A stretch of 64,000 bases of DNA from Marsupella aquatica. Its lineage: Eukaryota > Plantae > Marchantiophyta. The translations under genes and the position numbers were made by a program. This document shows, piece by piece, positions 606-42,477 of the stretch (position 1 is its first letter; every line of letters starts with the position of its first letter). The notes beneath the pieces are model-generated. The model was not told the DNA's origin and did not search any database. It saw nothing but the letters and a program-made list of their open reading frames with translations. The DNA lies in contig OZ316895.1 of assembly GCA_973895155.1 (NCBI GenBank), positions 23,532,622 through 23,596,621 of the forward strand. Direction: 5' to 3'.

Positions 606-5170
<4,565 letters not shown>

Positions 5171-10637: not shown

Positions 10638-13609
10638 GTTTGAGCATTCAAAACGCTGCACGGGACGGGGGCTCCATATAGTGCCACCCCCAAGGCCTAG
10701 AAAAAATTGTATGGCTTCAAGTGGAGGGAATTAAGGGGGCTACAGTTTGCTGCCCAACTGGCCCAGTTTTAGATTCATGGTCTGTTTTAGGATTTATATT
10801 CAAATTGCACTTTGCAACCTTACTATGCAGTTCCTCTACTAGACATTTCAATTTGTTGCTGAGTTAGTAGAACTTTAGTTCTTTGGCCATTTGTACTGTT
10901 GGGGCTATTTTGGCTCTTTGGTTTTCTTCGGATTTTCCTATGGATTCCCCCATTTGTTTGTTTGGTTTTTGTCCTATTTGGATTGTTTCCATCGTTAGTG
11001 GGTTCTTACTTGGGGTTCCTTTCTCCCAGTATGACCCATTTGGTTGTTTCTTTTGTACTCTTATATATTCCATAGTTTCAACCCAACCAGCCTGAAAAAT
11101 CTTACATCTTTATCACGTGGCTTCCAACGCATCTGTAAGTAATTGAAGGTTTATTAAATTATTCGTTTTGCTCTCTTTTCCTGGTAATTAAAACAGGGTT
11201 AAATGTTCCCTCACCAAACCCTATCCTGTTGCACAACACCCACGCCACTCAGCTCCTGCCACCTGCTGGGGCATGTATCATCCTTACAAAAAAAAGGAGG
11301 AAATCCAGCAACACAACAAAAGGCAATCATGAGGTTAAGGGGAGATCGAATGAGGAGGGGCCTTTGGGCTAGATTTTATTTACTGGAGGTTTTCTATTGA
11401 CTCTTAGACTAGATTTTTTAGTATCCTTTCTTGCCCATCTGATTCATGGCAGTAGTTTATCAGTTATATTGCATTATTTATGGAGCTGCATGGAAAGTGA
11501 GGTACTTAGCAGTGGGGGCCCCATTGGCCAGGGCCCACTCCTCTCTGCATACTCATGAGGGCTAAGCAATCAGGAAAAGCGAAGGCCAAGTCAAAATCTG
11601 ATCCTTGCATGTGGGTCCCATATTTTGAATCTTGCTTTTTCATTCTACTGTATGACATATCCTATGACTGTAGATATAATTGTTTTTGAATTTTGGGGAT
11701 TAACAAGATTTTTATCTCCATTTCTTGAGCATGGTACAGCCTAATTTTGAAGGTTTTTCCATTTTGCCAGTGTGGCGAATGTCACCTTGCGAGAAGGAGA
11801 AGATGCCAGGAATATTCCTTATCTACTTTACTACATTAATCTCTGGAGATGTTACGATGACCCTTAGATTCTGGCTATTGGGGTCATAGCTACAGTAGGT
11901 GGGAATCTGGCTAATGGAACATAGAAAACCTACACTAGTGAAGTACGGCCAAAGTGGTCAGGGCTTCTTAGTCAATTGTTAGCACTAAAAAAAACATGCT
12001 TGGCACCTCCTTGGAACCATGCAGTCCAACTGCACAGTTTTATGGAATGAGGGTGACCAAGGATTGCGCTTTTGACGACAGTGATATAAATAGATTAAAC
12101 TCTCGATGTTGCATGGATTCTATGTGGAAGGCTAACCCGTACCCATAGAAAAATGAAAAAATATGCATGCAGTTCAATTCCCACCACACGTATAAATCTC
12201 ATGTGAAGATATGCTCTATACAATATGATTGTGTAAGGTAACGCGTGGCCTTGAGATTACAAAGGAAAAAACATACAGTAGGGGTTTATTTCTATAGGAA
12301 TCCAATGGTGACGACCAGTGTTCCCGTTCTGTGCAAATATTTAGCACTTTTGCTCCGGGGTGAAGGGGCTTGCAAATAATACAATGAGGGATTTAAACTG
12401 TTTTAGTAACTTATCTGCAATATCAACTGTCTGGATCTGACTGTACATAGATATGATGGTCATAATGTGACCATACAAGTCCAATATGCAGTTTTATCTA
12501 AGTGACAATTTCTTAACTGGCTATAAGTAGCACCTGCCTAAAAACAAACGGAAACACTGGTGAGGACCCAGGTTTTGACTATCATTGTACAATGAATCTT
12601 GACACAAATATAGATCATTGTTATCTAAACTACTAGAATAACTCAGACCTCCATGTCTATTACTCCTCTAAATGTGACGATTGACAAACACATTTCAAAA
12701 TGAGCATGATGGTTTACATATCCTTTGTTTACCATTTGATGTGGAAAAAGAGTCTGGCATACTCAGGACTGCCTGCCACCCCAATATCTCCCTTTTCCTC
12801 CCTATCATTGCAGTGCAGACATGACTGTCGGGCTGACCTGGATACACAAAATGTCCAGCCACCGCACCAATTTCCACTACAACACTATGCACCTCTTTTG
12901 CGAACCACCACCCTTCGCATCATACAAAGGAAACAAAATCCGAAATACCCAATTTGCGAACTTACTCGCATCGCAACGTCTTCGCTACTTCCCATCTCAA
13001 ATTCTTCGCAAATGGCCCTTCGCAACTACTTCGCAACTTGCGATTCTAAATACGTCGCAACATCTCCGCAACGTTGCGACGGCACTGTCCTTGCAAATAT
13101 TGAGAAACGACAAATTTCATTATTTTGCGAGAACAAATGAATCGCTCGCGTTGCGATAACATTTACATCGCAATTTCCGATGTTAAATTTCTCTATAACT
13201 TGCGATGCAAACAAACTCGTAAGATTGCGAGAAGCGGATGACCGCTTTGTTGCGAAGGCATTTAACTCGCAAACGTGTGGAGAGGAAGTCTTCGCTAGGG
13301 TTGTGATTTAGACAACATCGCAAGTGTTGCGATGCGTTTCTCCTCGGAATGGTTGCGATACGTTCACCGTGGCTCTTTGAGATGGGGGTTGGTTCTCAAA
13401 AGCTTCGCAAAATGTATATTTCATGGGTTTTTGTGTATTTGGGTTAGGGTGAGGGTGAGGGAGACCATTCATGGGTTTTGAAGCAGGGAGGAAAGTGATG
13501 TTGACCCAGTCTGCCGCAATTAAAATGGCATTACTGAAAAAGTACAAAAGTTACAAAATGGAAGGGTAAAAACCCTTAGGTAAAGTGCCACGGCCATGCA
13601 TGCTGATCG

Positions 13610-15761
13610 CTATACATGTGAACTCGATGTAAGTGCTCTAGCTACAACTTGTCTACATCGAGCTAGAAAGGAGTGTTCCTGCCCCTCCTTGCCTTCTTCC
13701 CCTTGGCCTTCTCCTTGCCCTTGTGTGCTCTTGGGGGGGGGGGGGGGTGCAACCTGGACTTCCTCCTCCTCTTGGTCACCCTCGGGGTCACCCTCATCCT
13801 CATCCTCATCCCCACCTCCACCGCCCTGGCTTGCCGCGCTACCACCCCCAGCACCACTGGAACGTGCTGATGCAAATGACTGGTCTCCAGTGCTAGTTGG
13901 CCTGGCTTGAGTAGCAGGAGCTGTGCTCCCCTCCCCTGTCCCCTCCACATCCTCATCACTACTATCGGTGCCACCCTCGGTATGGGAGTCACCATCCTCC
14001 CCTCCCTGCTTCCATTAGCAAACTAGGGTGTCTGTTAGTCTCATATTCTTTACAAGTGTGAACAAAAGAGATATTCATTCAAAATTGCAATGAATGTAAT
14101 AACCTAAAAATTCTCACCAATAATTCATCAACTTGCTGAAAGAGATGCTCCTTCCCATGTTTCTGGCCCACCTCCATCTCAGCCGCCGTAATCTTCCTCT
14201 TGTACCTCTTGTACTAAGCCAAAACAAAACCAGCACAATTGGGTTAACACCAACCCATAACCCGATTCACATGGCTTCTAAAAATTAGGGGGTTTGTTGG
14301 GGCTGGTGGGGTGGTGCATCAAGGTTTTGGGGTTATGGAGGGTGGCATATATGGGGAAGACCCTCAAAGAACACTTAAACGATCGGAAAATTTAAAAATT
14401 CAAATTTTTGAAATTTTGCGAAGGCGCCAGCTTCGCAATCATAAGGACAATTACGTTTGCGAAGCTGGTTGCGATGCCAATGTCTTCGCAACGCCTTCGC
14501 AAACGTAAGCAAAAAAAGGGCATAATAAGGTTTGCGAAGGATTTGCGAAGCTACCCGCATCGCAAATGTATCGCAAACTCTGTCATGGCAAAAACCCGAG
14601 AGGGAAGCAACTGTACGTGACCTAATCTGACACAACAAGTCTAATTGTAACTACTTGGTGGAAATGCAAGAAAGAGTTGGCTCATTGCAGGTGTGTTGGA
14701 ATAGGAATTGGAGTAGCAAGAAGTCAAGGGAGGAGAGGGAGGTGCACTCACGAATGTTGCTTTGAGGCCGGGGAGGCCACCTTGACCCAGCCTGTGGGTG
14801 ATGTTGGGCTTGTCTCGGACTCGCTCAGCTGCCTTCAGGAACTTGTTGGGTGGATCGCCTACTTCTGCTACAACCTGCTAGAGCTGGGCTACCTTCTGCT
14901 CCATCACCTTCAGGTCCCGGTCAGACTTCCCGGCCTCCTTTGCCCTTCGAGCCTTTGCCAGCTTCTCTGTGAAATCATTGAGGAGCCTGGCTGCTTTCAA
15001 CTTCACCTCTGTCTGGTAGAAGGCCTGCCAGATATCTTCTGAGAATTGCAGCGGCCTCTGCAAATTCCTATACTCCTCCAAATCTCTAAGGTGAGACCTG
15101 ATCTTCATTCTATCATGGTATCTAGCTTGTGACATGGAGTTTGAAATTTTGTCAGCAAGCCACTGTGAATCCATCTCTCCTCCATTTCGAAATGCATCTT
15201 TCACCTGATTGATGACTCACTTCTGCTCTGCCTTTGAGCGAGTGCCCCACTCGACTCCTCTTGCAAAATTTGTGGATACAATGTGCCTGATTGTGCTCTT
15301 GGCCCCATTGTAAGCAAGCTCGGTGGGAATCCCCTCATCCTCTAAAGTAATCAGAGGCAGCTTCCTCCTTGCTGCCTCCTTCTTTCTTTGCTCCTCCCTC
15401 TGTTTCCTGATCAGGTCTCTCTCATCTTTCCTCCTCTTCTTTTCCAATGCTTGAGGCGAGAGCACTCCAGCCTGAGCTCTCTCGTCCCTCTTTCGCTTCC
15501 TCTCAGCAGCCGCCTGCTCTACTGCCTTCCTTGCATCCTCCTCCACTGCTGCTTGCCCTGCAATGAGACCTGCTTGCAAGGCTTGGCCCAGAAGGGCACT
15601 CAATGATGCCAGCCCTGCTGGACTGGTGAAATCAATTTGACTCAATTGTGCAACCGAAAAATGCTCATCCACAATCGCCTTCAATCGATCCCCCCCCCTC
15701 GGTTGCCTCCGCTGCTGCCAGAAGCTCCTCCATCACCACCAGTCCCCTCTTCGCTCGCCAT
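13610..15761 (-). pseudogene. Disrupted TnpA/Ptta-like (Transposase_24-like) gene of the CACTA element
   Basis: Reconstructed exons about 14752-15761, 14118-14213 and 13610-14047. Contains RPLQFSEDIWQAF and ITHRLGQGG, resembling the plant Transposase_24 P..W and H.LG..G motifs. In-frame stops at 15217-19 (TGA), 14878-80 (TAG) and 14015-17 (TAA), a frameshift in the G-run near 15690 and a probable one near 14770. Confidence 0.7.
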
Positions 15762-16479
15762 CGCTCCGCCCTTGCCCTCGTTGCTCTCCTCAGGCCTGAA
15801 TGAACTGAATCCGCCTTGTCCGCGCTCGGCAATCCATAAGGATTCAAAATATTGGGCTTTGCGATTCGTTTCGCATCGCAGTTTGCGATGCATCGGCCTT
15901 CGCAAAAAGCTTCGCAAATTCTATCTTTGCAAAGTTTCAAGATTCGCAAAAGCCTTCGCTATTTGGTTTTGCCATAACCCCCGTCTCGCATGCGTATTTG
16001 ATGTATTGTTAGGGATACTAAGGGGGCTTATGAACATTAAATGGGGTAGATGTAGAGGATTATGTTGCATTTTAGTGGGATGTGATGAGATAAGGATTGG
16101 GGGGGTTAGAAAATTGAAGGAGTTATATTGCAGGGTAAGAGGAGGGGGTTTGGCCTGGTTAGGGGAGGGTTTCTTTTGTGAAGGTTGGGCTTAGATTGGC
16201 TTAGATACGAGGGGTTTTATGTTTTGGGTTTGCAGGGGGTTTTATTTATGAAGGTTGGGGTTATATGTATTGGAGGGTAAGAGCTAGGAGGGGTTTTATG
16301 TTTTGGGTTTTGGGGTTTAGGCCAACTTAGGAGGGTTTGAAAGAGAGGTTTCAGTTTTATAGTATCTTGGGTTACTTTTATGGTATCTTAGGAGGGTAAC
16401 CAAGAGGGGTGGCATATAATTATGGTAGAGAGAAGCATAGGATGGTTGAAGGGAATTGACCATTTAGGTTTTTGCTAAC

Positions 16480-17510
16480 TTCATTGGCTTACGCTTTTAG
16501 AGTTCCCAAGGGTCTATGGTGGGTTTTTATTGCATGACACTCACCTTTCACTTGAAGCGGGATGAGGTTTTGGTTTTTATGCTAACAATTGAGGGAAATC
16601 CCATGTAATCATGATCCAGTGCAGGACCATCACTGCTTCCTCAACTTTTGTCTAATGCATATGCATTGTGGGAACCCGGACATCTAAAAGGTATATTTAA
16701 ACATGTATGTTAGCAGGGTTTGATAAAGAGATTGTTCATAAACCTTGCCCTTCTTTGTTGTGCAAGAATATCTATATGCACATGTTTGGGGGTCTACAAC
16801 TTGAGAGAAGCTAATGGCTATCCAAACTTACTTTTTTGTTTCCAGTATTTTCCTCGTGCTTCTAGATTCAGCTCATGTTCAATGAGCCACACGACCTACA
16901 GGCACTATTGAGTCCGGATCTCATTCAGGTAATTATTGTCCAACTTCATTCTGGGCTTAGGCCTTTAGAGTTTTCCCAGGGGTCTAGGGTGGGTTTTTAT
17001 TGCATGACACTCACCTTTCACTCGAGGGGGGATAAGGGTTTAGGGTTTAGGGTTTTATGCTAACAATTGAGGGGAAAACCCATGTAATCATGATACAACG
17101 CAGGGCCAACACTACTACCTCAACTTTTGTCTAATGCATATGCATTGTGGGAACCCGGGCATCTAAAAGGTATAACATCATGTATACAGTCAATGTTGTT
17201 AGTACAGATTTTTATGCTTGCCCTTCTTTGTTGTGCCATGATATATGTGGGTAAATGTCTAAGATTCCACAACTTGACGGCTGCTAATTACCATCCAAAC
17301 TTACATTTTGTTTCCAGTATTTTCCTCCTACTTCTAGATTTGGCAAATGTTCCAAAAATCACGTGACCTATAGGCACTGTTGAGCCCGGGTCTCATTCAG
17401 GTAATAATCTAACCTCACTTAGGACATAGGGTATTACAATTTTCCCAAAGGTTATAATGTGGTTTCTTCTTGCATGACACTCACCTTAATTTGGGTTTCA
17501 TGCTAACAAA
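16480..17510. repeat. Diverged internal tandem repeat, about 470-bp unit x about 2.2, in the CACTA intergenic region
   Basis: TTGCATGACACTCACCTT recurs at about 16530, 17000 and 17470. TGTCTAATGCATATGCATTGTGGGAACCCGG recurs at about 16650 and 17128. Confidence 0.85.
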
Positions 17511-17610
17511 TATAAAAGGGTAATAAAGCCCCATGTATAAACCAACCTAATTGTTTTTTGAGTTCATTTTTTTAAAAATCGCTTTATATATGGCCTAATT
17601 TTTCCTAATC

Positions 17611-18810
17611 ATGCCCTACATGCAATGTAATGTGGCAGTGGATATGTCCTCTTCCTCTGAACTATCCAGTAGTGAGTACTCCTCCGATGACGATATACCC
17701 CCTCCTCCTCAGCCCGAGGTTACTGGTCCTCGTGGTCCACCCCGAAGACTTTGTGACTGCACCAGATGTGTGGGCCAAATTTCTCAAAAATCTTATGTGT
17801 GTGCTCAACATATTGAGAGATATGGACGTCATAGAGGTCTTACTCCTAGGGCTTCTTCATCCCATATGGTAAGTTTGTTTCAATTGATTGCGGTTCTTTA
17901 CTGTTATTTTTAGAGGTGAATCAATGTTTACACATATGGTTTACACATTTGGTTGTTTGTGGGTGTTTGCATGGAATAGGGATCCAGTATGCGTAGATTG
18001 GTGACACCACCACCCTATGTCCCATCACAAGGAGTTTTAGATGCTATAGGCAATGCACTTTCACAAGCCTTGGGTTTGGGAATTAGTACCAGTCATGGGA
18101 CAGAAGGGGAACACCCTCATGTGCCCACTGAGACACGAAGACCCCGGTCCAGGCCCCAATCCAACAGGAGGCCACGAGCACCCAATGACCCATCCAGAAC
18201 ACTAGTTCAGGGTAGGTGGGGTGTTTGTTCATTCACTGGCAAGTGTGCCTCTATCATCAAGGATTGGGAACCTATCACTCTTGGCTTGCCTTATTTTACA
18301 GATTTTGATGAGGAGATTGTGGTTTGGGGTAGACGTTGGATTGTGAAAACTTCCACACTTGGAGAGAGACATGGATATGGAGTATTTGCTTGTGAGGATA
18401 TCATCATGGATGAGGAGGGTGGGTCAAGTGTTCGTGGTAGAGAGGGTCCTACTTTGTTCCCATACGGTGGACCCATCTACAAGAGAAGACATTGGAACAT
18501 GATCCTTGCACAACATCCTGAGTGGAAAACATATGCTCTAGAGATGGATACTTTTGATGGTAGCACTAGAAGGTATAGTGAGCAGCGGGTGATAGATGGT
18601 GATCCCATACGTAATGGGAATATTGCTGGTTTCATAAATAGTACTGTGGGGACTCGGCCCAAGCGTAGGGCCAATTGTGAGTGGGTTTTTACTGATGGTC
18701 CAATGCCGGCACCATATGGCACGACATATCATAAGGACCATTGCTTAGTTCTTGCTACTAGGACCATTAGAGCAGGAGATGAGTTATTCACACACTATGA
18801 GTGGGATTAG
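17611..18810 (+). CDS. Transposon-borne SET-domain protein (putative lysine methyltransferase); exons 17611-17868 and 17980-18810
   Basis: SET motifs in order: VKTSTLGERHGYGVFACEDI (GxG), YGG, DG...GNIAGFINS, ANC, and ATRTIRAGDELFTHY (GEEL..Y). The donor ATG|GTAAGT at 17868 and acceptor ATAG|GGA at 17980 join in frame (phase 0). The start codon could also be the ATG at 17644. Confidence 0.85.
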
Positions 18811-21800
18811 GAAATCATGTCCTTTATCCTCTTGCACCTATTTTGGACTTCCCATTTACTATTATATATATGGCCTTTGGGCTCATTTTGGAGTAATAAG
18901 GTTTTAGCCCATGCATTTACTTTAATTCTTAATGTCTTGAATGAATGGTGTTAAGTCTATTTTAATTTGTTGTACTTGGTCAAATATACATGAGGAGGTT
19001 TTTTGGTTGTAATGTGCATAGAATGCGCAACCATCTCAACAAATGTTACCACGAAGGTTGAGAGCAACATATTGGGAGATGGGTATGCCAGAAGAGGGAG
19101 AACCATCAGAGGGTGATTCCTCATCAAGTAATGATGTAGGTGGTGCTGATGAGGAAGCCGCACCTCGGACTGATGACCAGGTCATGCATGATCAAGATAG
19201 AGCCATGGATGACTTCATGGTTGATTGGTTTGGTGCCGATGTTGAGGATGATGTGCCTCACATTGGTCATGAGGTTGGCCCTTCAAATGACCCACGGCCA
19301 CAACATACTCCAGAGGGACAACAACAATGGAAAGAGGCAGAGGAACATGCTCGAACACCTATTTTTGAGGGTGCTCGGTTGAGCCGTCTTTCTGCCATAT
19401 TGGGGCTCTTGAACATTCAAGCCAAACACAAGACAAGCAATTCTATGTTATCAGACATATTTGAATATTGTCATGACTTGATGTTACCCTCGGAGAATGT
19501 GTTGCCAGGGACCTGGAAGGATGCAAAGAAGGTTCTCTCATCCATTGGTATGGATTACCATATTATTCATGCCTGTGTGAATGATTGCATGTTATTTCAC
19601 GGGGATACAGCCCATATCACAGAATGCACAGTGTGTCATGAGCCACGGTATGAGCCAAACATGCTAACCCAGAAGGTACCAAGGAAAGCAGTTTGTTGGT
19701 TCCCCATAATTCCTCGCTTGTTGCACATGTATAGATGTTCTTACTTGGCCGAGTTGATGGTATGGCACAAGAAACATCGTTCGGAGCCCGGTGTCATGCG
19801 ATTACCAGTTGACTCTCCTGCTCATAAACATGTGGAATCAACATGGCCAGATTTTGAGCGTGACCCTCGGCATGTGCGACTGGGGTTGGCATCAGATGGA
19901 GTTAGCCCTCATTCACTTGGAGGGAAGGGGAGACCTACATCGGTCTGGCCTGTGGTTCTCATGAATTACAACCTTCCACCATGGTTGTCCATGAAAAAGG
20001 GTTTTTTGTTGCTATCTTTGATTATCCCAGGGCCAAAGAAGGTGAAGAACATGGACACCTATTTGACATTACTGGTTCAGGAACTCCAGAAATTATGGGA
20101 AGGAGTATGGGCATATGATGGTCGAAAGACTACAGGGGGTACCCCACGGGTTTTCAAACTCAAAGGGGTTTGTATGTGGACCATGCATGACTACCCAGGT
20201 AAGAACTTTGTTGTTTAAATGCATCATATTCTAATGCATGGTATCCCCTCATTTCCATGTGCTAATCCTAACATAATGTGTGTTTATATGACCAGGATTT
20301 GGCTTTGTGAGTGGGTTGCAAACCCAAGGCTACAAGGCTTGCTCCACTTGTGGCCCAAGCCTTGGTGATGTAGCCAAGTATTCATCACATCTTCGCAAGA
20401 TTGTTTATCTTGGGCATACAAAGTTTCTTCCAATGGGACATCAGATGAGGCGTGACCCACTACTATTTTCCTCTATTGATATGCCCTTTGGTGACGAGCG
20501 TGATGTACCTGAGCCAACAACTTTTACACACTGGAAAGACATGGCTGCAAGAGTGGCAGACCCAGAGGATCCCATGCAATTTGATGGTAGTGGCTTGACA
20601 AGGTGGAGTATATTAACCACTTTGCCCTATTGGGGTGAGTTGAAGATCCGCCATCTATTAGACCCCATGCACATTGAGGGAAATGTGGGAAAGGCTTTGA
20701 TAAAGGCTTTCTATGGAGAGAAAGACACTAACTTCAGGGAGGCTTGTGAGGATCTTGAGATGCATCCAGACGTGTGGGTCATAAGTGATCCTATCACAGG
20801 GATCGAGCATCGACCTTCAGCTCCATGGGTGCTTCCTATTGGCCAGAGAAGGGAGTTTCAGAATCGCATAGGAGACATGCGGTTTCCTACTGGTTATGGT
20901 GCCAATCTCCGAAAGGCCTTTGGGATGGAGGACAATCATAAGTGGCCAAGGTATCTCAAGACACATGACTACCATAGGTTATTGCAGCACATATTGCCTG
21001 TGGCCATAATAGGTTTGGCAAGTGAAGAAGTGCAAGATGCCCTTTGGTCATTGGGAAAACTATTGAGATGGGTATGCTCTAAGGAGATATATACTGATGA
21101 GATCCCTGGGATGGAGGTTTTGGTAGCAGAGGTGGTATGCAAGTTGGAGAAGGCCCTTCCTCCTTCCTTTTTTGACTGTCAAGTGCATTTACTTGTTCAT
21201 CTTGTTCATGAGGTGGCCATTGCAGGTCCTGTGCATTGTCGGTGGATGTATTGGCTAGAACGATACATGGCAGTGTTAAAAGGTTATGTACGTAACCGTG
21301 CACGGGTTGAGGGAAGCATGGCTACAGGATACTTAGCAGCTGAGAGTATGTTCTATTGTAGTAACATATTGGCCACAATTGATTGTACCTCTCCCCGTAC
21401 TTGGGTAGAGGAGAGGGAAGATGAAGAGGATCGTTTAACAGGTGCTAGGAAAACTCGCATGTTGACATCAGTGGAGGTGAAACAACTGACCACATTCATG
21501 TTGAGTAACAGCACTATCATGGAAGAATGGAGGGATTTCTATGAGGATGCCAAAAGTAACAGCACAAGACCAAGGATTTTTCCAAAGTACCTTGACTATA
21601 TGAAGGAGAAGTTAGTTGAGGTGGATGACATGGTGGTCAGGGGAGAGAGTGTATTACATTTTCCGGCTATCACAGATGATGTTCGTACCATTGTTCATGG
21701 TCCCTTGAGAGTGGTTACAACAAGGACAGCAATGTGGACACAAGGAAGACATTTCAGGTGATCTCCATCTACCTTAGTAACCTTTGATTTGAATCACTTG

Positions 21801-22415
21801 GTTTAATTTAATTCATTTGTAATACAAGCACGTATATTGAAGAGGCAGATTCTTGGTGTGTTCAATTAATTGGAATATGTTTGTGTCTATTTTTGTGTAA
21901 CATATCCTTATGGTTTGATGGATTTTAGGATTTCTTCCCTTGATGAGAAGAGGGGTCGTACCTTTGATTGTGGAGTTCAAGGACAATTCTCTCAAGATTC
22001 CCGCAGCAGTCGGCATGACACAAATATTATTCGAGATGTTGTGCCACATTATGGAAAGGTAGAAGAGATTCTAGTGATATCTTATGATGCACAATCAAAG
22101 TTTGAAGAGTATGTCTTCAAGTGCAAATGGTTCAAAGTGAACCTTGCAGGTAACAATCCTACTGTGGTTCAAGATGAGTGTGGATTTACACGACTGAAGA
22201 CTTCTGCCACTAGTTTCCAGCCATCTCATTGGCAAACATCAGAGCCGTTCACTTTTCCAAGTCATGTGGAACAATGTTTCTATATTCCATACCCCCCAAA
22301 CCCAGAGGAATGGTCACTTGTCATCACATATGTGCCACGGTCTCGTTCAATCGTTGGGGAAAAGCCTGATATTCTGGTTGTGTCCCAACCTGAAGATGAT
22401 GAGGACCAAGTTTGA
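17611..22415 (+). CDS. CACTA TnpD/Tnp2 transposase; exons 17611-17868, 19022-20198, 20296-21757, 21929-22415
   Basis: Transposase_21-type motifs IHACVNDCMLF, RHVRLGLASDG, WPVVLMNYNLPPW, LIIPGPK, WTMHDYPG, LDPMHIEGN; DUF4218-type LKTHDYH, FFDCQVHLLVHL, GPVHCRWMYWLER; DUF4216-type YGKVEEI, FKCKWF, EPF. All junctions are GT-AG and keep the frame, with no stops. Use of exon 1 is inferred. Confidence 0.93.
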
Positions 22416-24498
22416 GGGGTCTGTGTTTGTGGATATATAGCTACACGGATATATAGTTAGATTTGATGATATGAAGATTTCTCTTCTCGGTAGAATGGAG
22501 AAATATGCGCTTCTCAATTATCAATAAACTTATGTTTTGTAAGTATATCATTTTCAAATGTTGTTTTCTATATCTCCCATCCCTACCCCACACTCACCAC
22601 ACCTTTTGGTAGACTTTATGCAAAGAAAACTCATGTTGCTTGTAGTCCTCTATCCTCCATGCTTTCCTAATCCCCCCTAGCTGTTCTCCTTATTACTTGT
22701 ACCCACCTCCCTCCTCCTTTCTTTCATTGTCTGTCCCTCTTATTAAACCCTCCTTCCTCCTTCCTCTCCTTGTCCCAACCCCTGGCTTTCTATTTCAACC
22801 CTATACTTTCCTTACTTTCCACCCCTGTCCCCCACTCTTACCTATACAACCTAGCTTCTCTCCTCCCTCCTAAACCTATACCCTTAAACCTCCCTCATTT
22901 CCTTGTCCCTCTCTAAACCAATACCCTCCCTCCTTTCCTTGTCCCTCTCTAAACCCTAAACTCCCTCCTTTTTATTTTCACTCCCTAAATCCAAACCCTC
23001 CCTAAAACTATATCTACATACCCTTCCTCCTCCCTCATTTCCTTGTGCCCCCTAAACCTGTATCCTCCCTCTTGGATCCCTCCGTTCCTTGTCCCTCCTA
23101 GCCCCATTCCCTTCCTCCTCCTTTTCATTGTCCCTCCCTAAAAATTACATGTATCCACCCTCCTTTACCCTCCCTCCCCAATCCCATTCCTTTTCCACCT
23201 CTTTGAAGCGCTCATAATATTTTGCGAAACATCTTGCGAAACCCCTACACCCGCAAACTCATCGCTACATTTGCGATACTTAACAGCTCCCTAATTGCCA
23301 TCATCCCCTCATCGCAAACTTCCGAAGATACCACCATCTCAAAGTTGCGAAACCAAAACATTCACAAAATGAGACCCTAGACAGGCACAGGATTTGCGAG
23401 CCTATTACTATTGCAAGTTAGCCATATATTCCACAAACATCGCTCATTTGCGAGACAATAAGACTCGCAAAATATTTTGAGATGCTTAAATATTCGCAAC
23501 CATTTAGTTTTCCAGCGCATCTCAATGAATTTGCGAAGCGGTAAAGATCGCTAACTTGTTCAATGGTAATTGCTTCGGGAATGTTTTGCGATACCTGAAG
23601 TGTCGTAAAATGTTGCGATGGTCTAAGTTTCGCAATTATGTGTTGCGATGTGTGTAGATTCGCTAAGTGCGATGCGTATCGTATCGCAAGGTTAGCGATG
23701 AGATTAATCTTGCAAAGCTTTCTTCCTCTTGTAAAACGCCTTCGCAAAATTGGCAAATATGTAGTAGTGTTCCCGTCCAGAGATTTCCCTCGCCATCATG
23801 GAGAGTCACACTTACAAGAAATCTTGAGAGACGGAATATGATTTGGCATACTCTTGGAGCACTTAAAATACAAGGAAGGCAATTAAATATGGCTGATGTC
23901 TGCTCCACAAGGAAGAAGACAACAAACACCCATTCTGGTTCTACCCTTATTCTGGCTCTACCCTTACGCCCAAAAATGTGGTCCAGGAGATGGGTTATAG
24001 TCATCCATCTTATGAAACCAACTGTAGCAGTCTTTCAAGAGGCTTCATTGTCTCAATCTTCATCAATGAGGGCCTAAAGAAGATGACAAATTCTGTTATG
24101 ATGGCAAGTTCTCTCAGGGCTTCATTCGCCATAGTGTTTAGGAGCATTCAATTTGGATTCAAATGGTCACCATGTGGATGTGAAGTGGTCAATCTGCCAA
24201 TGTATTTTTGTTACAAAAGTGAGGGTGTGTTAGATGCAGTAGGACCTGTTCATGTAATCCTAAGTGAAATGATGGCTGTAGACAGAGAATTATGCTGGAT
24301 GTTTATCTGTCCATCTATCTCTAGGGAGAAACAAAGAGTGACAAGGAAACTGGTGACACATGAAACAGTGAACTGTCCCTGCCAGAACCTAGGGTGATAG
24401 GAGAAATGGCCAGGTGATAAGGGAGATGGCAAGGTGACATGGGATATCTCTGGACAAAGCAAATATTCAACCCATTGTCAAATACTTTAAGGTCATGC

Positions 24499-26362: not shown

Positions 26363-29300
26363 TCAGTCTGTCTTCTTGTCAGCTGCTTTTTGATCACCAT
26401 CAGCTGTTGGCACCTCTCCTTCAGATGTGCTTTCTTCAGAGACAGACTCATCAAAATCAAGTAGCTGCAGTTCAGGCAAAGACAAGTAGGCCACATGTAA
26501 GTACGCTGGTCCATTCAACATATTTATGCAATTATCTTTCAGGTAGTCCTCCATGAGATCTTTACCGCAATCGTAAGGAAAAATGATGCAGAACTTTACC
26601 GCTTTGACTTCTCCTTTCATCAAACTGTGAACAGCTACGAAACCAATAACACCTGGTACAATGTAGAGTAGAGCTGGCTGCAACACACAAAGAGGAGTAG
26701 GTTAGAGACGATAAAAAGTGAGCATTCACCTAGCTGTGGTCTTAATAACGACGTAATCTCACGTGAAACAGACGTGAAGGAGATTGGGAACATATCATTC
26801 GCTTTCAACATTTGCAGAGCTCACATGTGCAGATAGGATGTTTCCGTAAGGCTAACCTGAGCAGCTTGAAACCAATTCATGACAACTATGGTCACCAATA
26901 ATCCTGCAGTATACCCCGCAAAGGCACTGTTGAAGTAGCGTTTGCCGGTCTTCTGAGAGACGTCAAACCGTAGAGCAAGGGCTACAAAAATGCCTGTACA
27001 TGGAATTCAATTAAGTCAGCAACGAGTATACATATCTGAAAGAATGAGAATTTGGAGTTTAAAATAAAATCCTGGGGACTGACGTAACCACAAACCTGGA
27101 ATGACAATGTCGCCCAAGCCCAGCATGGAGAATGGTCGGGTTATATCTCCTGTGGGAAATATCAGCTGCGGAATACACGAAACAAACAAATATCAAAATT
27201 TCGAAAGCAATGCTTCCGACCTGAAACTTCAGTTATTGGATGATGTGAAGAAAAGCCTACATTACATGGAAAGTGTCTGACCCAGTGGCTAAGATTTAGT
27301 AGAGTATATACCCCAAACCTATCTGCCAGTGAGGAGTGCTTGAATGCCCTTTTGTGTAGACCAACTACTGCAACGCATCGAAGGGAAATGAATGATGTAC
27401 CTTGATAGGAGCGTCAAATGACTTAGCAACGCTGACCATAACCGGAGTAAAGAAGACCCAAAATATGTCATAGAAAAATAACCCTGCCTACAAAGTACCA
27501 AAACAAATTATTCAGTAATAGAACGAAAGTCTGGGTACGTTATAAACTTCGTAAGCCGAAAATAAGTAGGAGATACGCTACACAGTAATTGCCAATTAAA
27601 CTTCACTTTCTCCACAATGGGGAACGGTCCACAAAACACTCCCATCAGAGAAGTTTCGAATGAGAACATAACAAATACATACCAGCAGGATCGCACCGAT
27701 CTTGAATGATCCTAGAGACAACATCTCAATACCCTGCAGGAAATTTGCAAAGAGGCAAAGACTATTGGTCCTCCGCGAAAATCTTACGACAGGGAATTCA
27801 GGAGCTTGACCGGCATAAAACGTGAGAGATGCAAACATTGTGAATTCCAAGATGTCATTGTGTATATTTTCTTCAACAATATTTGAAACCAAAGTGATAA
27901 CAAGAGCATTAAATACCTGTATGGAGAAGGCCAACCCCAGTGTATTGTTTGCCAGCCAATGCTTCTTCAAGACATACCAGACACAAAAAAAGGTGCCTGG
28001 AATGCCTGCAATGACCTGCGACTTGGTGAACACCACCTCCACTTCTGCATTGTATCCAAGGCAATTAGTTTTGGCAACGTATAAGTCAGCTCATCGGTGT
28101 GCCACAAACTATTTGAAGACTTTCGTTTTCGGGAAGACATTATCTCTCTCCGGCCATCAAATGAAAGCATGTGCACATGGATAGGCTAAGAATGGTTTTG
28201 GCACATATTCGCTGTGTCAACACAACTGGTACAAATTATTTCAAAGGGATCGAAGTGACCAGTTCAACAGGCAAGGAATTACGAAAGAGAAAATGCGCAA
28301 AACTTCGGGAAATCTCACTTTTGAAATAGGGGAGATCCCAGGTGATAGGGACATCATTCCAACTTGGGGGCAGGAAGCTGTCAATCACCGGTAATATTGT
28401 TGCACTGCAAAACATCAATAGATGTAAACCAGATGGTAAGCACACAATCTGCAACATTCACGTCTCAACATATTGCTCCAATATTCAAGGCTATCCAAAA
28501 ACACAAATCTCTCTGAGACGGTCATGAACCGTTTGGTAGAAATGAAACAAAGTGAACAATAACATCTAACGTTCAGACTGATGCAGAAAAGGATAGCTTA
28601 GCATTGCCCACAAAATTAGTGATTTTGAGCCCACATACGATAGCGCAAGAATGCCCAGAACAAAGAAGTAGACCGTGAGGACTGTGTTGATCAGATCCTT
28701 CGGAAGGAACTTGAATAGAAGGAAAAGCGAGAAAAGAACAGCACTCCCAATGAATGGAAAGCGCATTGCGTGCTCCTTCGACATTGTTTCCTGCAATACA
28801 CAGACAGCCCTTAGAGGTGCATCAAAACCCTACGTGAATTTTCACCTTGAGTCAAACAGCCTATCCAGCCAAAATTAAAGAGCTAGAAAAAAGCAGATTA
28901 AAGGAGGCAGAGAAACTTACAGTAGGAGGCGCAGGCTTGACAGAGCGGTGGCAACCAATGAACACAGTCAGGCATGCTGTTGCTATCACATTGAAGTTCG
29001 GGTTCACTGTCACTACCAGAGGTGCCAGAGTCAAACCTGCAAACGAAAGGTGTACAAAAGATGCCGTGCTTAAGATCAAGCTCAAAACATCTGAACTCCA
29101 CGGGCCAAATATATTTTTTGCGCTCGCTGTGATCCTTAAGGGAACCAAGGCCACACCTGATGGCTAATACAGCACAGCTGTGGCTGATGTACAGGAACAT
29201 TCCCAAACCTTACCAACGGCATACTGCAAACCTACAAGGTGTGGCTTTGAATTTAAATTGGCGTAAATTGAACTCCCAAGAAGCAAGATAGAATCCCAGA

Positions 29301-33449: not shown

Positions 33450-34537
33450 GGAGCTGAACTGGTAAGATCTGGTACTTTTGAAACATCATGAGCTTCTTCC
33501 TAATCATCATCCGAACCATCATCAAGTCCTTCCAAAACATCAAAAACTTTAGTCTTGAGCATGTGGAAGTGTTCCCTGAAGAGCGTCTCGGCTTCCTGTT
33601 GAAGTTTAGTTGCTGCAAGCGTCCGAGCGAGTCTGAGCATGTGTGGCACATTATCTACTGTTAATTGTCGGCAAAGCTCAGAAAAATTCCTTCAGAAATC
33701 CAATTTCCAGACAATGTGCAGCTCTGAGGACCTCATCAGGGCGAACAAATTCCGAGAAAGTTAATTCTCCAGAATGACAAAAATTCGATAGTTCTTCGTA
33801 GACTGGGTCTGTGCCAGAAAACAGCTCCTTGACCGGTTTCAGTCCAGTTCGACCATTCGCTATCGCCTCTTGGACGAATCGTGATTTTGCAGCCTGTACA
33901 TCATGTTGAAACAATATTGTTAACCAACGAACAAAGACACTCATATATCCTAAAGTCACATTTAAGATTTGATTTTCATGAAATGACGCCAGAAGTAAAC
34001 AAATATTTCGAGGTCCAACTACACCGTCATTTTTGAGGAACAGGAAACAGACGTTGGCGTGATGTCAGCCAATGGGATTAGAAGCAAGGAGTACAAATTC
34101 CTCACCACGACAGACAAAATTACAGCTGCAGGTGTAGGCACCGTAGAGCCATTGAGCTTTCGCATTGTCCACGCAGGCAGAAACTCGCGGGGCAGTTTCA
34201 AAAACTGCACCATAATTCCCTGGCTAAGGTTTTCGGCCTTCAGCCTCTCAACCTCCGATAGTAATTGCTCGTACTCTGTGCTCTTGTTCGTCAATGCAAG
34301 GGAGCTCTCGGCAGTTATCCTGGACAGTTCAGTTTGATGATTTTCTTTGGACGCGGCAAATGCAGCCCGCACCAACCTCAATTCAGCCTGAAGTTCCGTA
34401 ACTTGTTTCTCATGGCGCGATTGACAACTGGAGCAGCCAGAGATATCCAGACGATATTGACAGCCACTTACCCAAGTACGAACCACTGCCGGTAAATCGG
34501 CCTCCAAACAGTATTTACAATACTTCTGTGTTGACAT
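33450..34537 (-). pseudogene. Zn-motif/coiled-coil/BTB-like gene, copy A (frameshifted)
   Basis: Exon 1 34106-34537 (YCKYC...GCSSC plus coiled coil). Exon 2 starts at 33893 (AAKSRF...). A small deletion after IGFLKEF gives TGA at 33678, and the paralogous VDNVPHML sequence continues out of frame. The 3' end is approximate. Confidence 0.7.
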
Positions 34538-36607
34538 TACTGCTAGATAGCGATCGGTCTTTCAAGACATATCAATTACCGTTTATTCGAGAAGCTAAGC
34601 ATTGAAGCCAAGACGTTCTAAAGGGAAGATCAACAAGTCAATCAAATATATTAAGGTTGAAAAACGACGAAGATGTCACTCATGAACTACTCAAGAGCAG
34701 ATAACACGACAATCGCTTGATACAGATCATCTCTAGTGAGAACCCGGGGCACGGCAAGAGATAACACGACAATCACTTGATACAGATCATCTTGAGTGAG
34801 AACACGGGGCACGAAATAGAACACTGAAGCCGGGACTGACGCACGATATAAATCTCTCTACCATTTGTTGAGTGAAATACCCACTGCTGATTTTGTCTGC
34901 TTGGACAAACCGGAAATGGCGGGACTCCAGGAATCTACTAGGCCGATCTGGCGATCTGCTGTGTGTTCGCAATAATTAAGCACGGAAGGGGACTAAATGG
35001 GTTGAATAATGTGGCCGCCAGCAGCCAGCCACCCTGGCGGCGTAATGTCTGTAGTATGCAGGTCATAAGAAATAATGTGGAATCTACTGTACTGTAGATG
35101 TACCATATGTCTGCCGACGAAACCAGATGATAACTCAGTCATGTAAAGTACTCCCCACAGCATTTCTAAAACCATGCCTAATTCGTTGTTTGTTTCGTTG
35201 AAATGCTGAGCCACGTACAGTGATCTGTCCACACGTATAGGTGGAATGACTGTGTTCAACATGCGATGTAAGTCATAATTACTGGACCCGCGCCGCTGAG
35301 TTGTAACTTGCGATCGATTGAAATGCGGCCAAGTGTCCCTTTTATCTTTTTAACTTTCTTCCGAGAGAGGTTACTTTCCGAAATTAACGAGTCACAGCAA
35401 GTTCAACAAGTGATGCATTTACAAGTGCTAGAGATTAGTGTATACTTTCGTCTGACAATAAACTACTGACTGTGTTTCCCCTTCAACTGTCATCGATGTT
35501 ACCGATCAAACGTGACCGGGATGGCAACTACGATGTTGAAAACAGACGTTGCCAATTGACCAGTTTTCTTATTTCAAGGGTTTAAGCTTTGAAAGAAACG
35601 CTAGTTTTTCTCTTGTTTCAACGGTAGGCGATATTCCTTGTTAACCATAAAATTACTTTGCAATCCCGAGAGAATTCATTCCTTAATCTTCAGGTACACG
35701 TAGGATAGACATACTGTAGGGCTACCGACGAAGCCAGATGATAAAGTCCTACAGTCAGTATAAAAAAGCGCAGCATTTCTAAAGCCATATCTAATTTCGT
35801 TATATGTTTCCTTGAGATGGTAAGCCACTTACGGTGATCTGTCCACACGGATGGGTGGAATGACTGTGACACAGAGTTCAACTTGCGACGTTAGTGATAA
35901 AATACTGTACCCCTACGCGCCATGTGTTCTTGAGATGGATTGGAATGTGACGAAGCGTACATTTGCATGTTTCCGATCCGTCCTACTAACAGGGCAGCTG
36001 AGTAGTCTCGCTGAGATCCCGGCTGAGATCGCCTTGCTATTTAATGCAGGTGGAGGGAGAGGGCGATCGAACGCGCGAATGTGCTCCAAGAAATTTAGCT
36101 ACCAAGGAGATTGATAAATCAACGATGGAGACCAAATTTTAGAAGCAGAAAAGGTGCCATAAATATGATGCCATACAGTTTGGACAAAACATCATGTAAT
36201 TAAACCAACGACCATGTAGTTGATTGCAAGCAGATTCAACCCTGACAAAATTGGTTGAGATGCGGGAATGGTTCCACGACAGCTTCCAGAATTCAGACAT
36301 CCTTCTTCAAGAGAAAGGAAATCTACACCTCAACCATTGAGTGGAAGCAGACGTCACGCTATTTGCTTAGCGTTCGAGTTAGACATTCGCAGGAAATTAT
36401 AGATCAGGAATTTATAGATCTTAGTCAAAGGGCAGCTAAAATCCGAGGAAGCATCATCCAAAGAAGGATCTTCGAACATGATACCGTGGGAAAACTAGAT
36501 TCAAAGAATCATTTCGTACTACTACATTTGGAGCCCAGTAATTATCAAAATACTGGCAGGTCCCGAATGTGGAATTGAAATGGTTCAAAACAGGTCCTTC
36601 CGAAACA

Positions 36608-37891
36608 TCAGATCCTTCCGGTCGTAGCATGATCAAGACCTTCTAGACCGTCATAAAACTTAGTCTTCAGCATGTCGAAGTGTTCCTTGAAAATATTCTC
36701 CGCTTCCTCTTGCAGTTTAGTTGCTGCAAACTTCCGAGAGAGTTTGAGCATCTGTGGCACATTATTTACACTTAATCGTCTGCAAAGCTCAGCCTCACAA
36801 AACTCCTTCAGAAACCCAATTTCCAGATTATGTGCAACTTTCAAGACCTCATCAGGAGGCACTAGTTTCGAGAAAGTCATTTCCCCACGATGGCAAAACG
36901 TCAGTATTTGATCGAGTATTGGCACCGTCACAGTCCCAAGAAGATCCAGTAATGGTTGCTCTAAAATTTGACTTGCGCGTAGCATCATCCGGACGACTGG
37001 CGATTTTGCAGCCTGTACATGTAACAAGGCATAACATCAATTACGAACGGAGTACATATCGACGACATAACCTTAATTTACCTAGTATCTGCTTAGACGT
37101 CCTCCCAGCTGGCTTCCAACATTTATTTCGACTCTTAGATTCGACAATCAAGGAAACCAATTCAAATTGAAACTGACTTCCTACGCAATGTCCTCCAAGA
37201 ACCACTCACAAATCACCCCATGAACTTTGGAGAAGAGAATGTAGCATGCATGGTGTTAAAATCAAGAAAAAATTTAGAGGTCGATCCCCACCGTCATGAG
37301 GTGTTTCGTTTAGAAGGAAACAGAAGCTGACGTGATATCAGCCAATTGAATTGCAAGTATGGAGTACGAATTTCTCACCAGGACAGACACCAGGACAGAT
37401 AACTCTGCACCTAGACGTGGAGGTATCTTGAGGCCAGTCCTGGCCGCTTGCAGTTGCCACACATGCACAGGCGGGGGGTGCAGTTTTAAAAATTGCACTA
37501 TATTCCGCTGGCTGTCGTTCTGAGCCTTCAGCCTGTTAACCTGCGACAGTAATTGTTCGTACTCCGTCTGCTTGTGCACCAAGGCAATCGATCCCTCCGA
37601 TAGCAATTGCTCGTACTTGGCCTTGTTGTTCATCAAGGCAAGCGAACTCTGGGCTGTTATCCTGGACAGTTCAGTTTCGTGACTCTCCTTCCCGCTTTCT
37701 TCCGACTTTGCAAATGCAGCCCGCAGAGACGTCAATTCCATTTGAAGGGCCATAACTTCTTCCTCATGACGCCGTTGACAACTGGAGCAGCCCGAGATTT
37801 CCAACCGGTGAGAGCCGTTTTCCCAACTACGAACTACTTCCTTCTGATCAACCTCCAGACAGTATTTACAGTACCGTTCTGCATTCATCAC
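36608..37891 (-). CDS. Zn-motif/coiled-coil/BTB(POZ)-like protein, copy B (intact); exons 37379-37891 and 36608-37012
   Basis: In-frame GTGAG...TACAG intron. Exon 2 AAKSPVVRMML...LDQILTFCH...VLKVAHNLEIGFLKEFCEAELCRRLSVNNVPQMLKLSRKFAATKLQ matches the C-terminal half of BTB plus the BACK-like helices of SPOP/BPM-type adaptors. Confidence 0.8.
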
Positions 37892-40384
37892 TTCTAGATA
37901 CTGGTCACAATTTACAATGTGTGGGCGTGATCGAGATGGATATAGCTACCAAAGTAAGCGTTCTAGAGGAAGATCAAGATGTTGGCGAATTCCTCAACAG
38001 GAGAAACCACGACAATCACTTTATATCTATCATCTGGAGAGAGAACTCCAGGCAAGCGGTAGAACACAGGGGGACGTACCGCTCATTTTTGCACTTCGAC
38101 AAACCTGATCGAAAAACGGCAAGACGGATTCAAGGAATCTAGCAGATCTGCTGCATGTTCATAATGATTACGGTGCTTTCATTCGTGTACAGGAGGCCAT
38201 GCCCTTGGCGGCCCAATGGCTACCAGAATTATAACCACTCCTCTACAATCCCGAGGCAATTTATTCCTTTATTATCTTTGCTCGTGGTAAAGACGTACTG
38301 TAGAGCGAAGAAGTACTCTGGGTAGGGTTCCATCGGCCCTCATACTACACTTTGAGGGTTTCTCGTAAATCTTCATATTTCTGGGAGTCTGTGGGAGCCG
38401 TATTCCATCTGTCCTCATACTACACTTTGAGAGTTTCTTGTAGACCTTCATATTTCTGGGAACTTGTGGGAGAAGTATACCCTTCCTGAATTTTTATGAG
38501 ACATTATTACTGCCACTGAACTATTGGGCCAGTTGGAACTGGGACTTCTGAAATTTGAATGAGAAATATAATAAATGTAAATGATAGACAAGTGAATGCT
38601 TTGTAAAAATTCACTCAAGCTTTACACTTTGTAACTGATCTTCACTTGGGGATAATGGCAATAACCCCCTTGGGGATGGGTTACCCTACACATTATTTGT
38701 TTGCAGGCAACCCTCTGGTTTGAAAATTGTCTAAAATGAGAGCAGATGGCTTGCAACCCATAAGGTTTGTTTCAAATTCCAATCGGCTCTCAAGTTCTAG
38801 TTTGGTGTACACAGTGAAGTATTCTTTAGAGGCACTACGGGATGTAATGCACTGCAAACAAGAAGTTTTACCTCAAATTTTGAGAAGTTATTATGTTGAG
38901 CATAGACAATTATCGAAACGACAAGTTTATGAACCATGAATTTTCACTATCAAAACAAATATCACTTGGGATATAGAGTGTATAGCCTAGTTAACCTACT
39001 CTAGTTTCCAACTAGATAAATTAACTCTAACTACGGTTAGGGCCCGTCACCTTAGACTAAAAGTAAAAGCCTAATATACTATTGCCCATGATGTTCCAAA
39101 AACAGGCCCTAAGTGCACTTGAGGTACTGAATTATTTATTTATTTTAACTTTGGTATAACAAAAAATCCTAAAGAGGCTAATCTTGAATGGGCATTATGT
39201 TCCAAATGAATGCTCTCAAGTATACAAAATGAAAAATCACTAAAGGCATTAAGTTTAGAATAGTATGAAATAGCCTTCTTTGACAAGCTAAATTTGTTAA
39301 TACTCTATTCAAGATAGAAGAAAATTTACATAGAATAATCTTTATTGATGACTAAGTTAGAATAACTAAGTAATAGAACAGACCACCTGCAGTAGGTATA
39401 TGCTCACTGAATTGAATATGGCCGTCATTTGTGTTGAGTCCGCCAAACAAGGGGCGAAGTTTCTGTCAGATCACATCAAAACCTGTCCCCCGGTAAGTTG
39501 TCTTAAATCGTAAAATGAGGCTAATGAAGATCGCTAATCTAATCCCCACGAGCAGCAGTTCTCGTAAAGGATGCGGCATTGTCGAAATACTCATCTCTGT
39601 GCATTTATTCATGAGAACTCTCAGTGTATCACGGTCTGTCCCAGCTGACCTCGAGTTACCGGCCCTCAAGACATCTGAAAAGATGCTATGATCAACTGGA
39701 ATTTCGTTCGCTATATTGCCATGGATTCCTCAAGAGTATACATTCGCCCATCCCAAATTAGTGTAATTTAGTTGAACTCAATAGTCGCCAGCTCCTGGAA
39801 ACAATTTCAAGGGTGTAACCATTGGACAGTATCACGATAGGATAACAGTACTGTAACCAAACAAATTTAAATTCTTACGAGGAGACGCTGTACTATGCAA
39901 CCAAAGTAAATCGGAATTTTTGGAATGGAGATACACGCAAACAAATATTTCATGAGAGACCTACAGTAGCTACTTCGAATCCGTAGAGAGGACCTGTTAT
40001 TGTGTCAAAGAAATTAACTGCCCAAGAACACGTAAATAATGCCAAACTTGACACAACGGTAATGCAATTAAATCAAAGACCATACAGTTGATTATGCAGA
40101 CAGAACTTAGAAGTTCCTGCTTCAGACAAGGACAATCTCCGCCTCGACCTTGAAGAGTAAGCAGACATGATCGACGCTGATTTGTTCAGCGTTCAAGTAA
40201 GACACTCTCAGGAATTTAAATACAGATTAGACTGATTGTTCCTAGTCAGCGATCGTCGCTAAAATCAGGGGTCCAAGCATCAGCCAAAGGCACTTCCAAT
40301 AAAATCCGCGAGAAAGTGGATGAGAACGATAATTCCGAACTACATAAAATGGAGGCCAATCAACTTGTCTAAATCCTGAGTTGT

Positions 40385-41498
40385 TCATTGTGGAGCCGAA
40401 TGTCGAGCTGAAATGGTACCATCAAGTCCTTCTGAAACATCATCCGGTCCTCGTGAACGATCATCACCTCCTTCCGAGCCATAACTATCAAGTCCTTCCA
40501 AACCATCAAAAACTTTAGTCTTTAGTATGTCGAAGTGCTTCCTGAAGAGCTTCTCGGCTTCCTCTTGAAGTTTGGTTGCTGCAAATGTCCGAGCGAGTTT
40601 GAGCATTTGCGGCACATTATCTACTTTTAATCGTCGGCAAAGTTCAGTCTCACAAAACTCCTTCAGAAACCCAATGTCCAAAGCATGTGCAACTCTGAGG
40701 ACCTCATCAGGACGTACAAGTTCCGAGAAAGCTATTTCCCCAGAATGACAAAAACACGTTATTTCTTTGAAGGCCGGGCTTGTCCGCATTATCTCCTGGA
40801 TTGGTTTCAGCAGAGATAGATCTTCCGTTAGTGCCTTTTGCAATATATGCTGGTGATTTTGCAGCCTGTACATGTGAGAAGCCATATTGTTAACTAGCAG
40901 AACACAGACCAATGAGATGAGATGTCCTATACAGACATTTGGTCCAACGTCCTGCTGGTATCCAACATTGATTTCGCATTTCAAGGATTTGATTTTATGG
41001 AATGGTGCTCAACTCAAAACAACATTTTCAAGGTCCACACCGGCATTGTGAGGACAAGGGAACGGAAGTTCACGAGATGTAATCAAGCCACTTCAACTCT
41101 AGCAAGGAGCACAAATTCCTCACCACGACAGACAACTCTGCACCTGCATATACAGGCACATGAAAGCCGTTCACCGTTCGCACTACCAACTCAGGCAGGG
41201 ACTCGGGGCTCAGTTTCAAAAATTGCACCATACTTCGCTGGCTATTGTTTTCAGCCTTCAGCTTGTTAAGCTCCGACAGTAATTGCTCGTACTCTGCCGT
41301 CTTGTTTGTCAAGGCCAGCGAACTCTCGGCTGTTATCCTGGACAGTTCAGCTTGAAGTGCCGTAACTTGTTTCTCATGGCGGTATTGACAAGAGTAGCAG
41401 CCCGATATATCCAAACGTTATTGAGCGCCAATTACCCAACTACGAACGACTTCCGTCGAATCGGCCTCCAAACAGTACCTACAATACTGTTTTAACAT
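40385..41498 (-). pseudogene. Zn-motif/coiled-coil/BTB-like gene, copy C (disrupted)
   Basis: ATG at 41498 (MLKQYCRYCLEAD), in-frame TAA at 41418-41420, and the exon-2 start AAKSP (40865) is out of frame with the downstream BTB ORF. Confidence 0.7.
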
Positions 41499-42475: not shown

Positions 42476-42477
42476 TT

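Follow-up and report, generated by a model that had tools for sequence, protein, structure and literature searches.

A CACTA transposon of the liverwort Marsupella aquatica with a SET-domain exon nested in the first intron of its transposase gene, a predicted alternative last exon behind a common first exon

In SETMAR, a host gene and a domesticated transposase are fused and yield one protein. SET and transposase sequences stand there in one gene, and predicted SET-transposon gene fusions have been noted genome-wide (10.1101/2021.11.30.470311), a paper represented here, like the others cited in this and the following paragraph, by excerpts. Among CACTA elements, maize En/Spm, with its products TnpA and TnpD, and Arabidopsis Spm3 obtain both a transposase and a regulator from one alternatively spliced gene, and the TnpA of Spm3 leads to hypomethylation of cognate copies (10.64898/2026.08.24.746577). 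DNA transposons of other superfamilies and hosts carry SET methyltransferase genes as accessory genes, as described for HarbingerS and oomycete MuDR (PMC12730594) and for Helitrons (10.1101/2025.02.11.637652). In the Plavaka elements of red algae, placed by their authors in the EnSpm/CACTA superfamily, the accessory gene PAG2 encodes a Pfam SET domain that has long been kept and is proposed to be a chromatin modifier (10.1101/2025.02.11.637652). Here, a CACTA element of 10,895 bp is described from a 64-kb stretch of the Marsupella aquatica genome (contig OZ316895.1; this whole stretch is termed the window, and positions are counted from its first letter). The element occupies positions 12875-23769 and holds an exon encoding a SET domain within the first intron of its transposase gene.

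The element differs from each of these systems. PAG2, as described, stands apart as an accessory gene of its own and includes a DNA N6-adenine methylase domain, whereas in the window the SET exon is nested in the intron of a land-plant Tnp2-family transposase gene behind a common first exon. TnpA of En/Spm and Spm3 is a DNA-binding regulator, with no SET domain or methyltransferase mentioned in the excerpts, whereas the alternative product of the window element would be an enzyme-like SET protein and a separate, divergent gene (gene B) is present besides. In contrast to SETMAR, the SET domain travels as cargo of the element and is predicted not to occur in one product with the transposase catalytic core. 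For the SET genes of HarbingerS, oomycete MuDR and Helitrons, a shared exon goes unmentioned in the excerpts. The first-pass annotation of this DNA knew of no characterised plant CACTA element of this architecture, a view that survives in part. No literature was found on a land-plant CACTA element with a SET exon or on the nested-exon design, in a search that left Repbase and preprint supplements outside its scope, and PMC11982613, as excerpted, does not describe such an element. However, publications already describe DNA transposons that carry SET genes, Plavaka of the EnSpm superfamily among them, and supplementary Table 6 of 10.1101/2021.11.30.470311, with 823 candidate transposon-chromatin fusions, the supplements of 10.1101/2025.02.11.637652 or Repbase may already include this family.

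The gene is encoded on the plus strand. Exon 1 (17611-17868, 258 nt, phase 0) encodes a Ser/Pro-rich stretch and a CxCxxC-x11-CxxH-xxxYG finger, and ends ATG|GTAAGT in a phase-0 GTAAGT donor. The SET exon (17980-18810), a predicted alternative last exon, is open for 276 codons up to its own stop, comprises a linker, an N-terminal beta-hairpin extension and the SET core, and scores 27.1 bits against Pfam SET (cut-off 22.4). It is followed by an AT-rich spacer (18811-19021), the predicted 3' untranslated region of the SET form and the 3' end of the long intron, which closes in a conserved CATAG acceptor. The remaining exons encode the first part of Transposase_21 (exon 2, 19022-20198), its second part and DUF4218 (exon 3, 20296-21757), and DUF4216 with the stop (exon 4, 21929-22415); the Pfam matches (Transposase_21 at E 1e-39, DUF4218 and DUF4216) identify a Tnp2-family transposase. 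The SET acceptor TAG|GGA (17980) and the transposase acceptor TAG|AAT (19022) are each in frame with exon 1, and joining 17611-17868, 19022-20198, 20296-21757 and 21929-22415 through GT-AG introns gives 1127 stop-free codons. The small upstream exon, the single donor serving two in-frame acceptors and the intact SET exon with its own stop had been proposed in the first-pass annotation, and on re-examination its coordinates and frames proved correct. As annotated homologues start MSSSS, the ATG at 17644 is a likelier start than that at 17611; the products would then be of ~351 aa (SET form) and ~1116 aa (transposase).

The element was compared with a set of 41 metagenome loci, nearly all Sphagnum-type by identity; L041, which gave no match on re-search, was excluded from all counts, and the distant L040 from estimates of the ratio of nonsynonymous to synonymous divergence (dN/dS). 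The donor GT is kept in all 20 loci with exon 1, as GTAAG in 17, and an in-frame TAG|G SET acceptor is present in 17 of the 20. The transposase acceptor CATAG|AAT stands in register in 21 of 24 loci, with one more a codon off and two mutated. It is found also in the further subfamily L005 and in a diverged subfamily among the loose ends of run X5, one of five runs (X1-X5) whose contigs were examined, and in a second subfamily in X1 and X3 similarity resumes at 19019 past an unrelated spacer. An in-frame TAG directly precedes this acceptor in the window and in those 21 loci. The N-x-x-P-S codons ahead of the first Met are kept in X5, the window and the majority of Sphagnum-type loci, with synonymous changes at the Pro codon, and because they persist despite the preceding in-frame stop, translation likely reaches them from an exon further upstream. 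The conserved acceptors are most simply read as reflecting a shared first exon, and it is probable, with good confidence, that both splices are used. The earlier proposal of two proteins with a common N-terminus is upheld to this extent, but its likening to TnpA and TnpD is loose, because the separate, divergent gene B is a better candidate for the usual ORF2 (second open reading frame, ORF).

An internal donor producing a SET-transposase fusion was rejected. A rough weight matrix revealed no conserved phase-0 donor within the SET exon or spacer, and the sole conserved GT (18221, 18 of 19 loci) is in phase 1. Among gene models of Sphagnum and Riccia, the fused ones (P0021, P0155, P0177 and P0178) differ in where they join and look like prediction artefacts over broken copies. 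Apart from the splice sites, three Sphagnum-type copies (L013, L017 and L030) have an additional intron of ~150 bp near codon 199 of transposase exon 3, which is absent from the window copy.

When aligned with the N-termini of 35 CACTA transposases of full length, the finger of exon 1 gives an HHalign probability of 92% (E 5e-7, 34 columns), a match that is inflated because the segments were chosen for CxCxxC; an N-terminal CxCxxC is present in 35 of 59 long CACTA transposases. One relative matches Transpos_assoc weakly (E 0.03). In P0051, P0289 and P0291 such a finger is fused directly to the exon-2 homologue in a single ORF, and in P0114 finger and SET share a single ORF. Exon 1 resembles the transposase's own N-terminal CxCxxC..H finger, a module that the SET product likely borrows. 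Since the finger is joined directly to transposase or to SET in these intronless ORFs, the likely history is that the SET exon was inserted behind the finger of the transposase.

Linkage of the SET exon to this gene extends well beyond the window. Of the loci with sufficient DNA upstream of SET, all 19 have exon 1 there, of the 25 with 400 bp or more of downstream DNA, 21 have the transposase there, and Riccia gene models whose SETs are ~40% identical adjoin Transposase_21 as well. A search with the SET exon returned 46 proteins, the named ones being from Sphagnum (five species), Calypogeia fissa and Riccia sorocarpa. Profile searching gave 148 clusters at 50% identity, 53 of them with E<=1e-30; the organism-named entries among 28 representatives looked up were from Riccia (6), Calypogeia (1) and, remotely, Ginkgo and Psilotum (E ~1e-6 and 1e-13). 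When 65 transposase cores were placed in a quick tree, the nine rows linked to SET all lay to the same side of a branch with weak support (Shimodaira-Hasegawa-like approximate likelihood ratio test, SH-aLRT, 82). The SET core has a dN/dS of 0.15 between the window and L001 (95% bootstrap interval 0.08-0.27) and 0.15 between the window and L005; the values are 0.15-0.16 for the window against three loci and 0.22 for L005 against L001 (bootstrap upper bounds 0.26-0.38). For the transposase core, dN/dS is 0.08-0.10. These results support the SET exon as a stable part of a bryophyte CACTA lineage, kept under purifying selection, and it is near certain that the nested arrangement of exon 1, SET and transposase is real, conserved and selected. 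The SET exon is thus neither a one-off nor a neutrally evolving fragment, the outcome that would have undone the original proposal.

Two side observations concern the SET family. Its remote vascular-plant members are P0225 (Ginkgo), P0188 (Psilotum), P0165 and P0169, one of which comes from a transcript-style record. Synonymous divergence (dS) to Sphagnum-type copies is 0.6 in the SET core (18331-18807), about half the 1.25 of the transposase core (19337-20197); candidate causes are splicing signals in the alternative exon or a later exchange of SET exons between subfamilies.

The boundaries of the element are marked by terminal inverted repeats (TIRs) of the form CACTAC(A/T)ACA, matching at 9 of 10 positions, and by a duplication of the target site (TSD) that is 3 bp long, TTC on both sides: the left end reads ttc|CACTACAACA at 12875 and the right end TGTAGTAGTG|ttc at 23769. 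Elements of the CACTA class are defined by TIRs that begin CACTA and end TAGTG (PMC4158355). Because the TIR is short, and because an unrelated pair in the window (32503/48039) also satisfied the TIR and TSD rule, which can therefore be satisfied by chance, the ends were cross-checked by contig depth and by the motif TTGCGA. Contig depth steps near both ends in runs X1-X3, of which X1 or X2 may be the window's own sample. The motif occurs 52 times in the 10.9 kb of the element against 16 times in the 53.1 kb outside, with clusters at both ends and around gene B. Subterminal repeat clusters are a feature of CACTA elements. The left subterminal TTGCGA/TCGCAA cluster covers 12898-13405, with more clusters at 14416-14571 and 15859-15944, and the right cluster with its TIR covers 23222-23769; no strand is assigned to these or to the element as a whole. 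The same clusters were found in 5 of 5 long relatives examined, and one relative (L030:6255-16147) has matching ends with the TSD ACA. The TIR- and TSD-bounded CACTA element reported in the first-pass annotation was thereby borne out. In run X1, the contig at the right junction has a depth of 16 and near-identical inner contigs have depths of 500-600, and although depth does not equal copy number, this contrast suggests a recent multi-copy family.

A fold model of the SET protein built from 65 sequences reached a mean predicted local distance difference test (pLDDT) of 90.8 and a predicted template modelling score (pTM) of 0.86, superseding an earlier model from 33 sequences (pLDDT 59.8). Its best structural matches are all SET domains (Z 10-12, root mean square deviation (rmsd) 2.2-3.8; top match Z 12.0, rmsd 2.5, 124 residues aligned), while phmmer of the SET sequence against the PDB gave 0 matches. 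The window protein has G132/G134 (GxG), Y162/G164 (YxG), N220 (the motif-III Asn) and Y273 (the catalytic Tyr). Among the 65 SET sequences GxG is conserved in 62-63, the motif-III Asn in 56, the second Asn in 64 of 64 and the C-terminal Tyr in 52 of 57. On these grounds, lysine methyltransferase activity dependent on S-adenosylmethionine (SAM) is predicted as probable. The best solved match is RomA/LegAS4 of Legionella (PDB 8swi and 5czy; profile E 8e-7, Foldseek E 5e-8), which shares with the element's SET the absence of the motif-III His. The two are only 23-30% identical and the Z-score is tied with many eukaryotic SETs, so that neither origin nor substrate can be read from the match; moreover, RomA/LegAS4 needs ankyrin repeats and a post-SET segment, both absent from the element's SET. 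RomA/LegAS4 is described as an H3K14 methyltransferase, and post-SET segments as helping to bind SAM and substrate, in excerpts of PMC10653858. With regard to a viral or phage origin, relatives of the SET were absent from viral contigs, PHROGs and NCBIfam; viral folds match it only at ~20% identity, while a cluster of phage SETs is listed in the Atlas at 0.92.

In the proposed mechanism, two mRNAs would be made from one promoter, the donor at 17868 being joined either to the SET exon, in a form that ends in the spacer, or to the transposase, in a form that skips 17869-19021. The zinc-finger-SET product would be a putative SAM-dependent lysine methyltransferase that acts on chromatin and helps the element to stay active. 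The least certain step is that the enzyme would target a histone at copies of the element itself and that the resulting mark would counter silencing. Taken as a whole, alternative splicing that yields a finger-SET lysine methyltransferase supporting the element via chromatin is narrowly the favoured account. A histone-directed, anti-silencing role for the SET form is put forward as a tentative hypothesis. The fullest version, in which the transposase finger and a captured SET would form a sequence-targeted histone methyltransferase that marks the element's own copies and lets them escape silencing, combined with horizontal movement between liverworts and peat mosses, is doubtful.

Several findings weigh against this mechanism and bear on its rivals. 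Neither joint (17868-17980 or 17868-19022) is among the joints listed, runs X1-X5 including none recorded as RNA and their contigs spanning the introns. Searching with exon 1 for longer proteins gave 8 matches, all exon 1-SET forms or fragments and none exon 1-transposase, a blank that counts as weak evidence; gene predictors, moreover, tend to take the exon closest by. Pfam returned no match for exon 1 alone. That annotated proteins join exon 1 to SET only would suit two separate genes, with exon 1 belonging only to SET and the transposase, driven by a promoter of its own or forming a second cistron, starting at Met8 of exon 2 or in an exon not seen. Met8 is conserved, and separate-gene layouts are known from Arabidopsis Spm elements (10.64898/2026.08.24.746577, in excerpt). 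Such an arrangement leaves the conserved CATAG acceptor and the N-x-x-P-S codons ahead of Met8 unexplained, however, and would deprive the transposase of the N-terminal CxCxxC common among its kin, and it is considered very unlikely. The linkage itself has gaps: no transposase lies within 4-10 kb in three loci with a truncated SET, and a fourth, more remote in sequence, offers only 402 bp of downstream DNA. Most loci are near-copies of one Sphagnum-type family, leaving ~4-5 independent lineages, and dN/dS is ~1 among near-identical copies, the pattern expected of insertions that decay. CACTA elements often capture gene fragments. This habit and the ratio near 1 among recent copies are what a neutral captured host fragment would predict, a reading that is scarcely credible and is refuted by the selection and linkage results: dN/dS between lineages is 0.15-0.22 with intervals below 0.4, the SET occupies one and the same position in both mosses and liverworts, and no fewer than 53 clusters belong to the family at the thresholds given above.

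The remaining points concern what the SET form would do. The usual NH histidine is replaced by Ser in 61 of 65 sequences, with His in 0 of 65, and the stop falls three residues past Y273, leaving the protein without a post-SET segment. The NHS histidine is a canonical SET motif. Its loss marks the absence of a typical motif but not of a required one, because active LegAS4 is also without it. A dead or weak pseudo-enzyme, acting as a module for binding or regulating transposition in dominant-negative fashion as a truncated repressor isoform does, would accord with both features and with a transposase N-terminus lacking the catalytic core; but GxG, YxG, both Asn residues and the catalytic Tyr persist in an alignment of 65 sequences that reaches down to ~25% identity, and an active SET with the same His loss exists, which makes this distinctly unlikely. 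In the fold search Set1, EZH2, SET8, SET7/9, NSD2 and PRDM3 tie, so no histone-site subfamily is singled out, and the fold resembles the minimal SETs SET7/9 and SET8. SET7/9 and SET8 have non-histone substrates too. The same splicing could thus yield an active enzyme that methylates the transposase, the product of gene B or a silencing factor of the host, and the common finger could pair the SET form with the transposase. A non-histone substrate is nevertheless unlikely, given that the structural neighbours are nearly all histone methyltransferases and that reviews read transposon-borne SETs as putative chromatin modifiers (PMC12730594, in excerpt).

Gene B (13610-15760, minus strand) is a divergent accessory gene without a match in Pfam, PHROGs or the Atlas, recognised by its homologues, present in 12 of the 41 loci, and by selection (dN/dS 0.15-0.17). 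The window copy is broken by a frameshift near a G run at ~15690 and by a stop at 15217-15219; position 15219 is G in the run contigs. Gene B is a candidate ORF2/TnpA-like gene. TTGCGA clusters lie at its promoter and in one of its introns, as expected of a self-regulating DNA-binding protein. The promoter region between gene B and exon 1 (16430-17540) contains three diverged direct repeats of ~450-490 bp (joints 16335-16572/17049).

Over ~5.4 kb, the window element and a Sphagnum-type copy share 72-80% DNA identity, with an unsaturated dS of 0.6-1.4, and the Calypogeia protein is nearer to the Sphagnum one (61%) than to those of Riccia (41-43%). Horizontal transfer between mosses and liverworts would fit these figures, with the sorting of old lineages as the alternative.

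Elsewhere in the window, an intronless nad7, encoding the complex I 49-kDa subunit with an N-terminal extension, lies amid nuclear genes (57262-58521, minus strand). Mitochondrial nad7 has been lost in most liverworts, in hornworts and in a few mosses, and is nuclear in Marchantia (PMC5798402, in excerpt); the window copy fits the mitochondrion-to-nucleus transfer known from liverworts. Four tandem copies of a gene unit, spaced by 3.1-3.9 kb and 70-89% alike, occupy 33500-45300 (minus strand) and have BTB-like and Cys-rich coiled-coil parts. Ordinary host genes are represented by signal peptide peptidase exons (26363-28090, minus strand), a molybdate transporter (51934-53478, plus strand) and a C2H2 zinc-finger protein (606-1631, minus strand).

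With intact SET and transposase frames and close relatives in bryophytes, the element makes the substrates of transposon-borne SETs testable. It also carries a warning for annotation: among the bryophyte entries named 'SET domain-containing proteins' (a single cluster counts 360 members), many probably represent cargo of transposons and not chromatin genes of the host. The plant anti-silencing factors VANC and TnpA bind DNA; a writer enzyme encoded by the transposon, if true, would be a direct and assayable mechanism.

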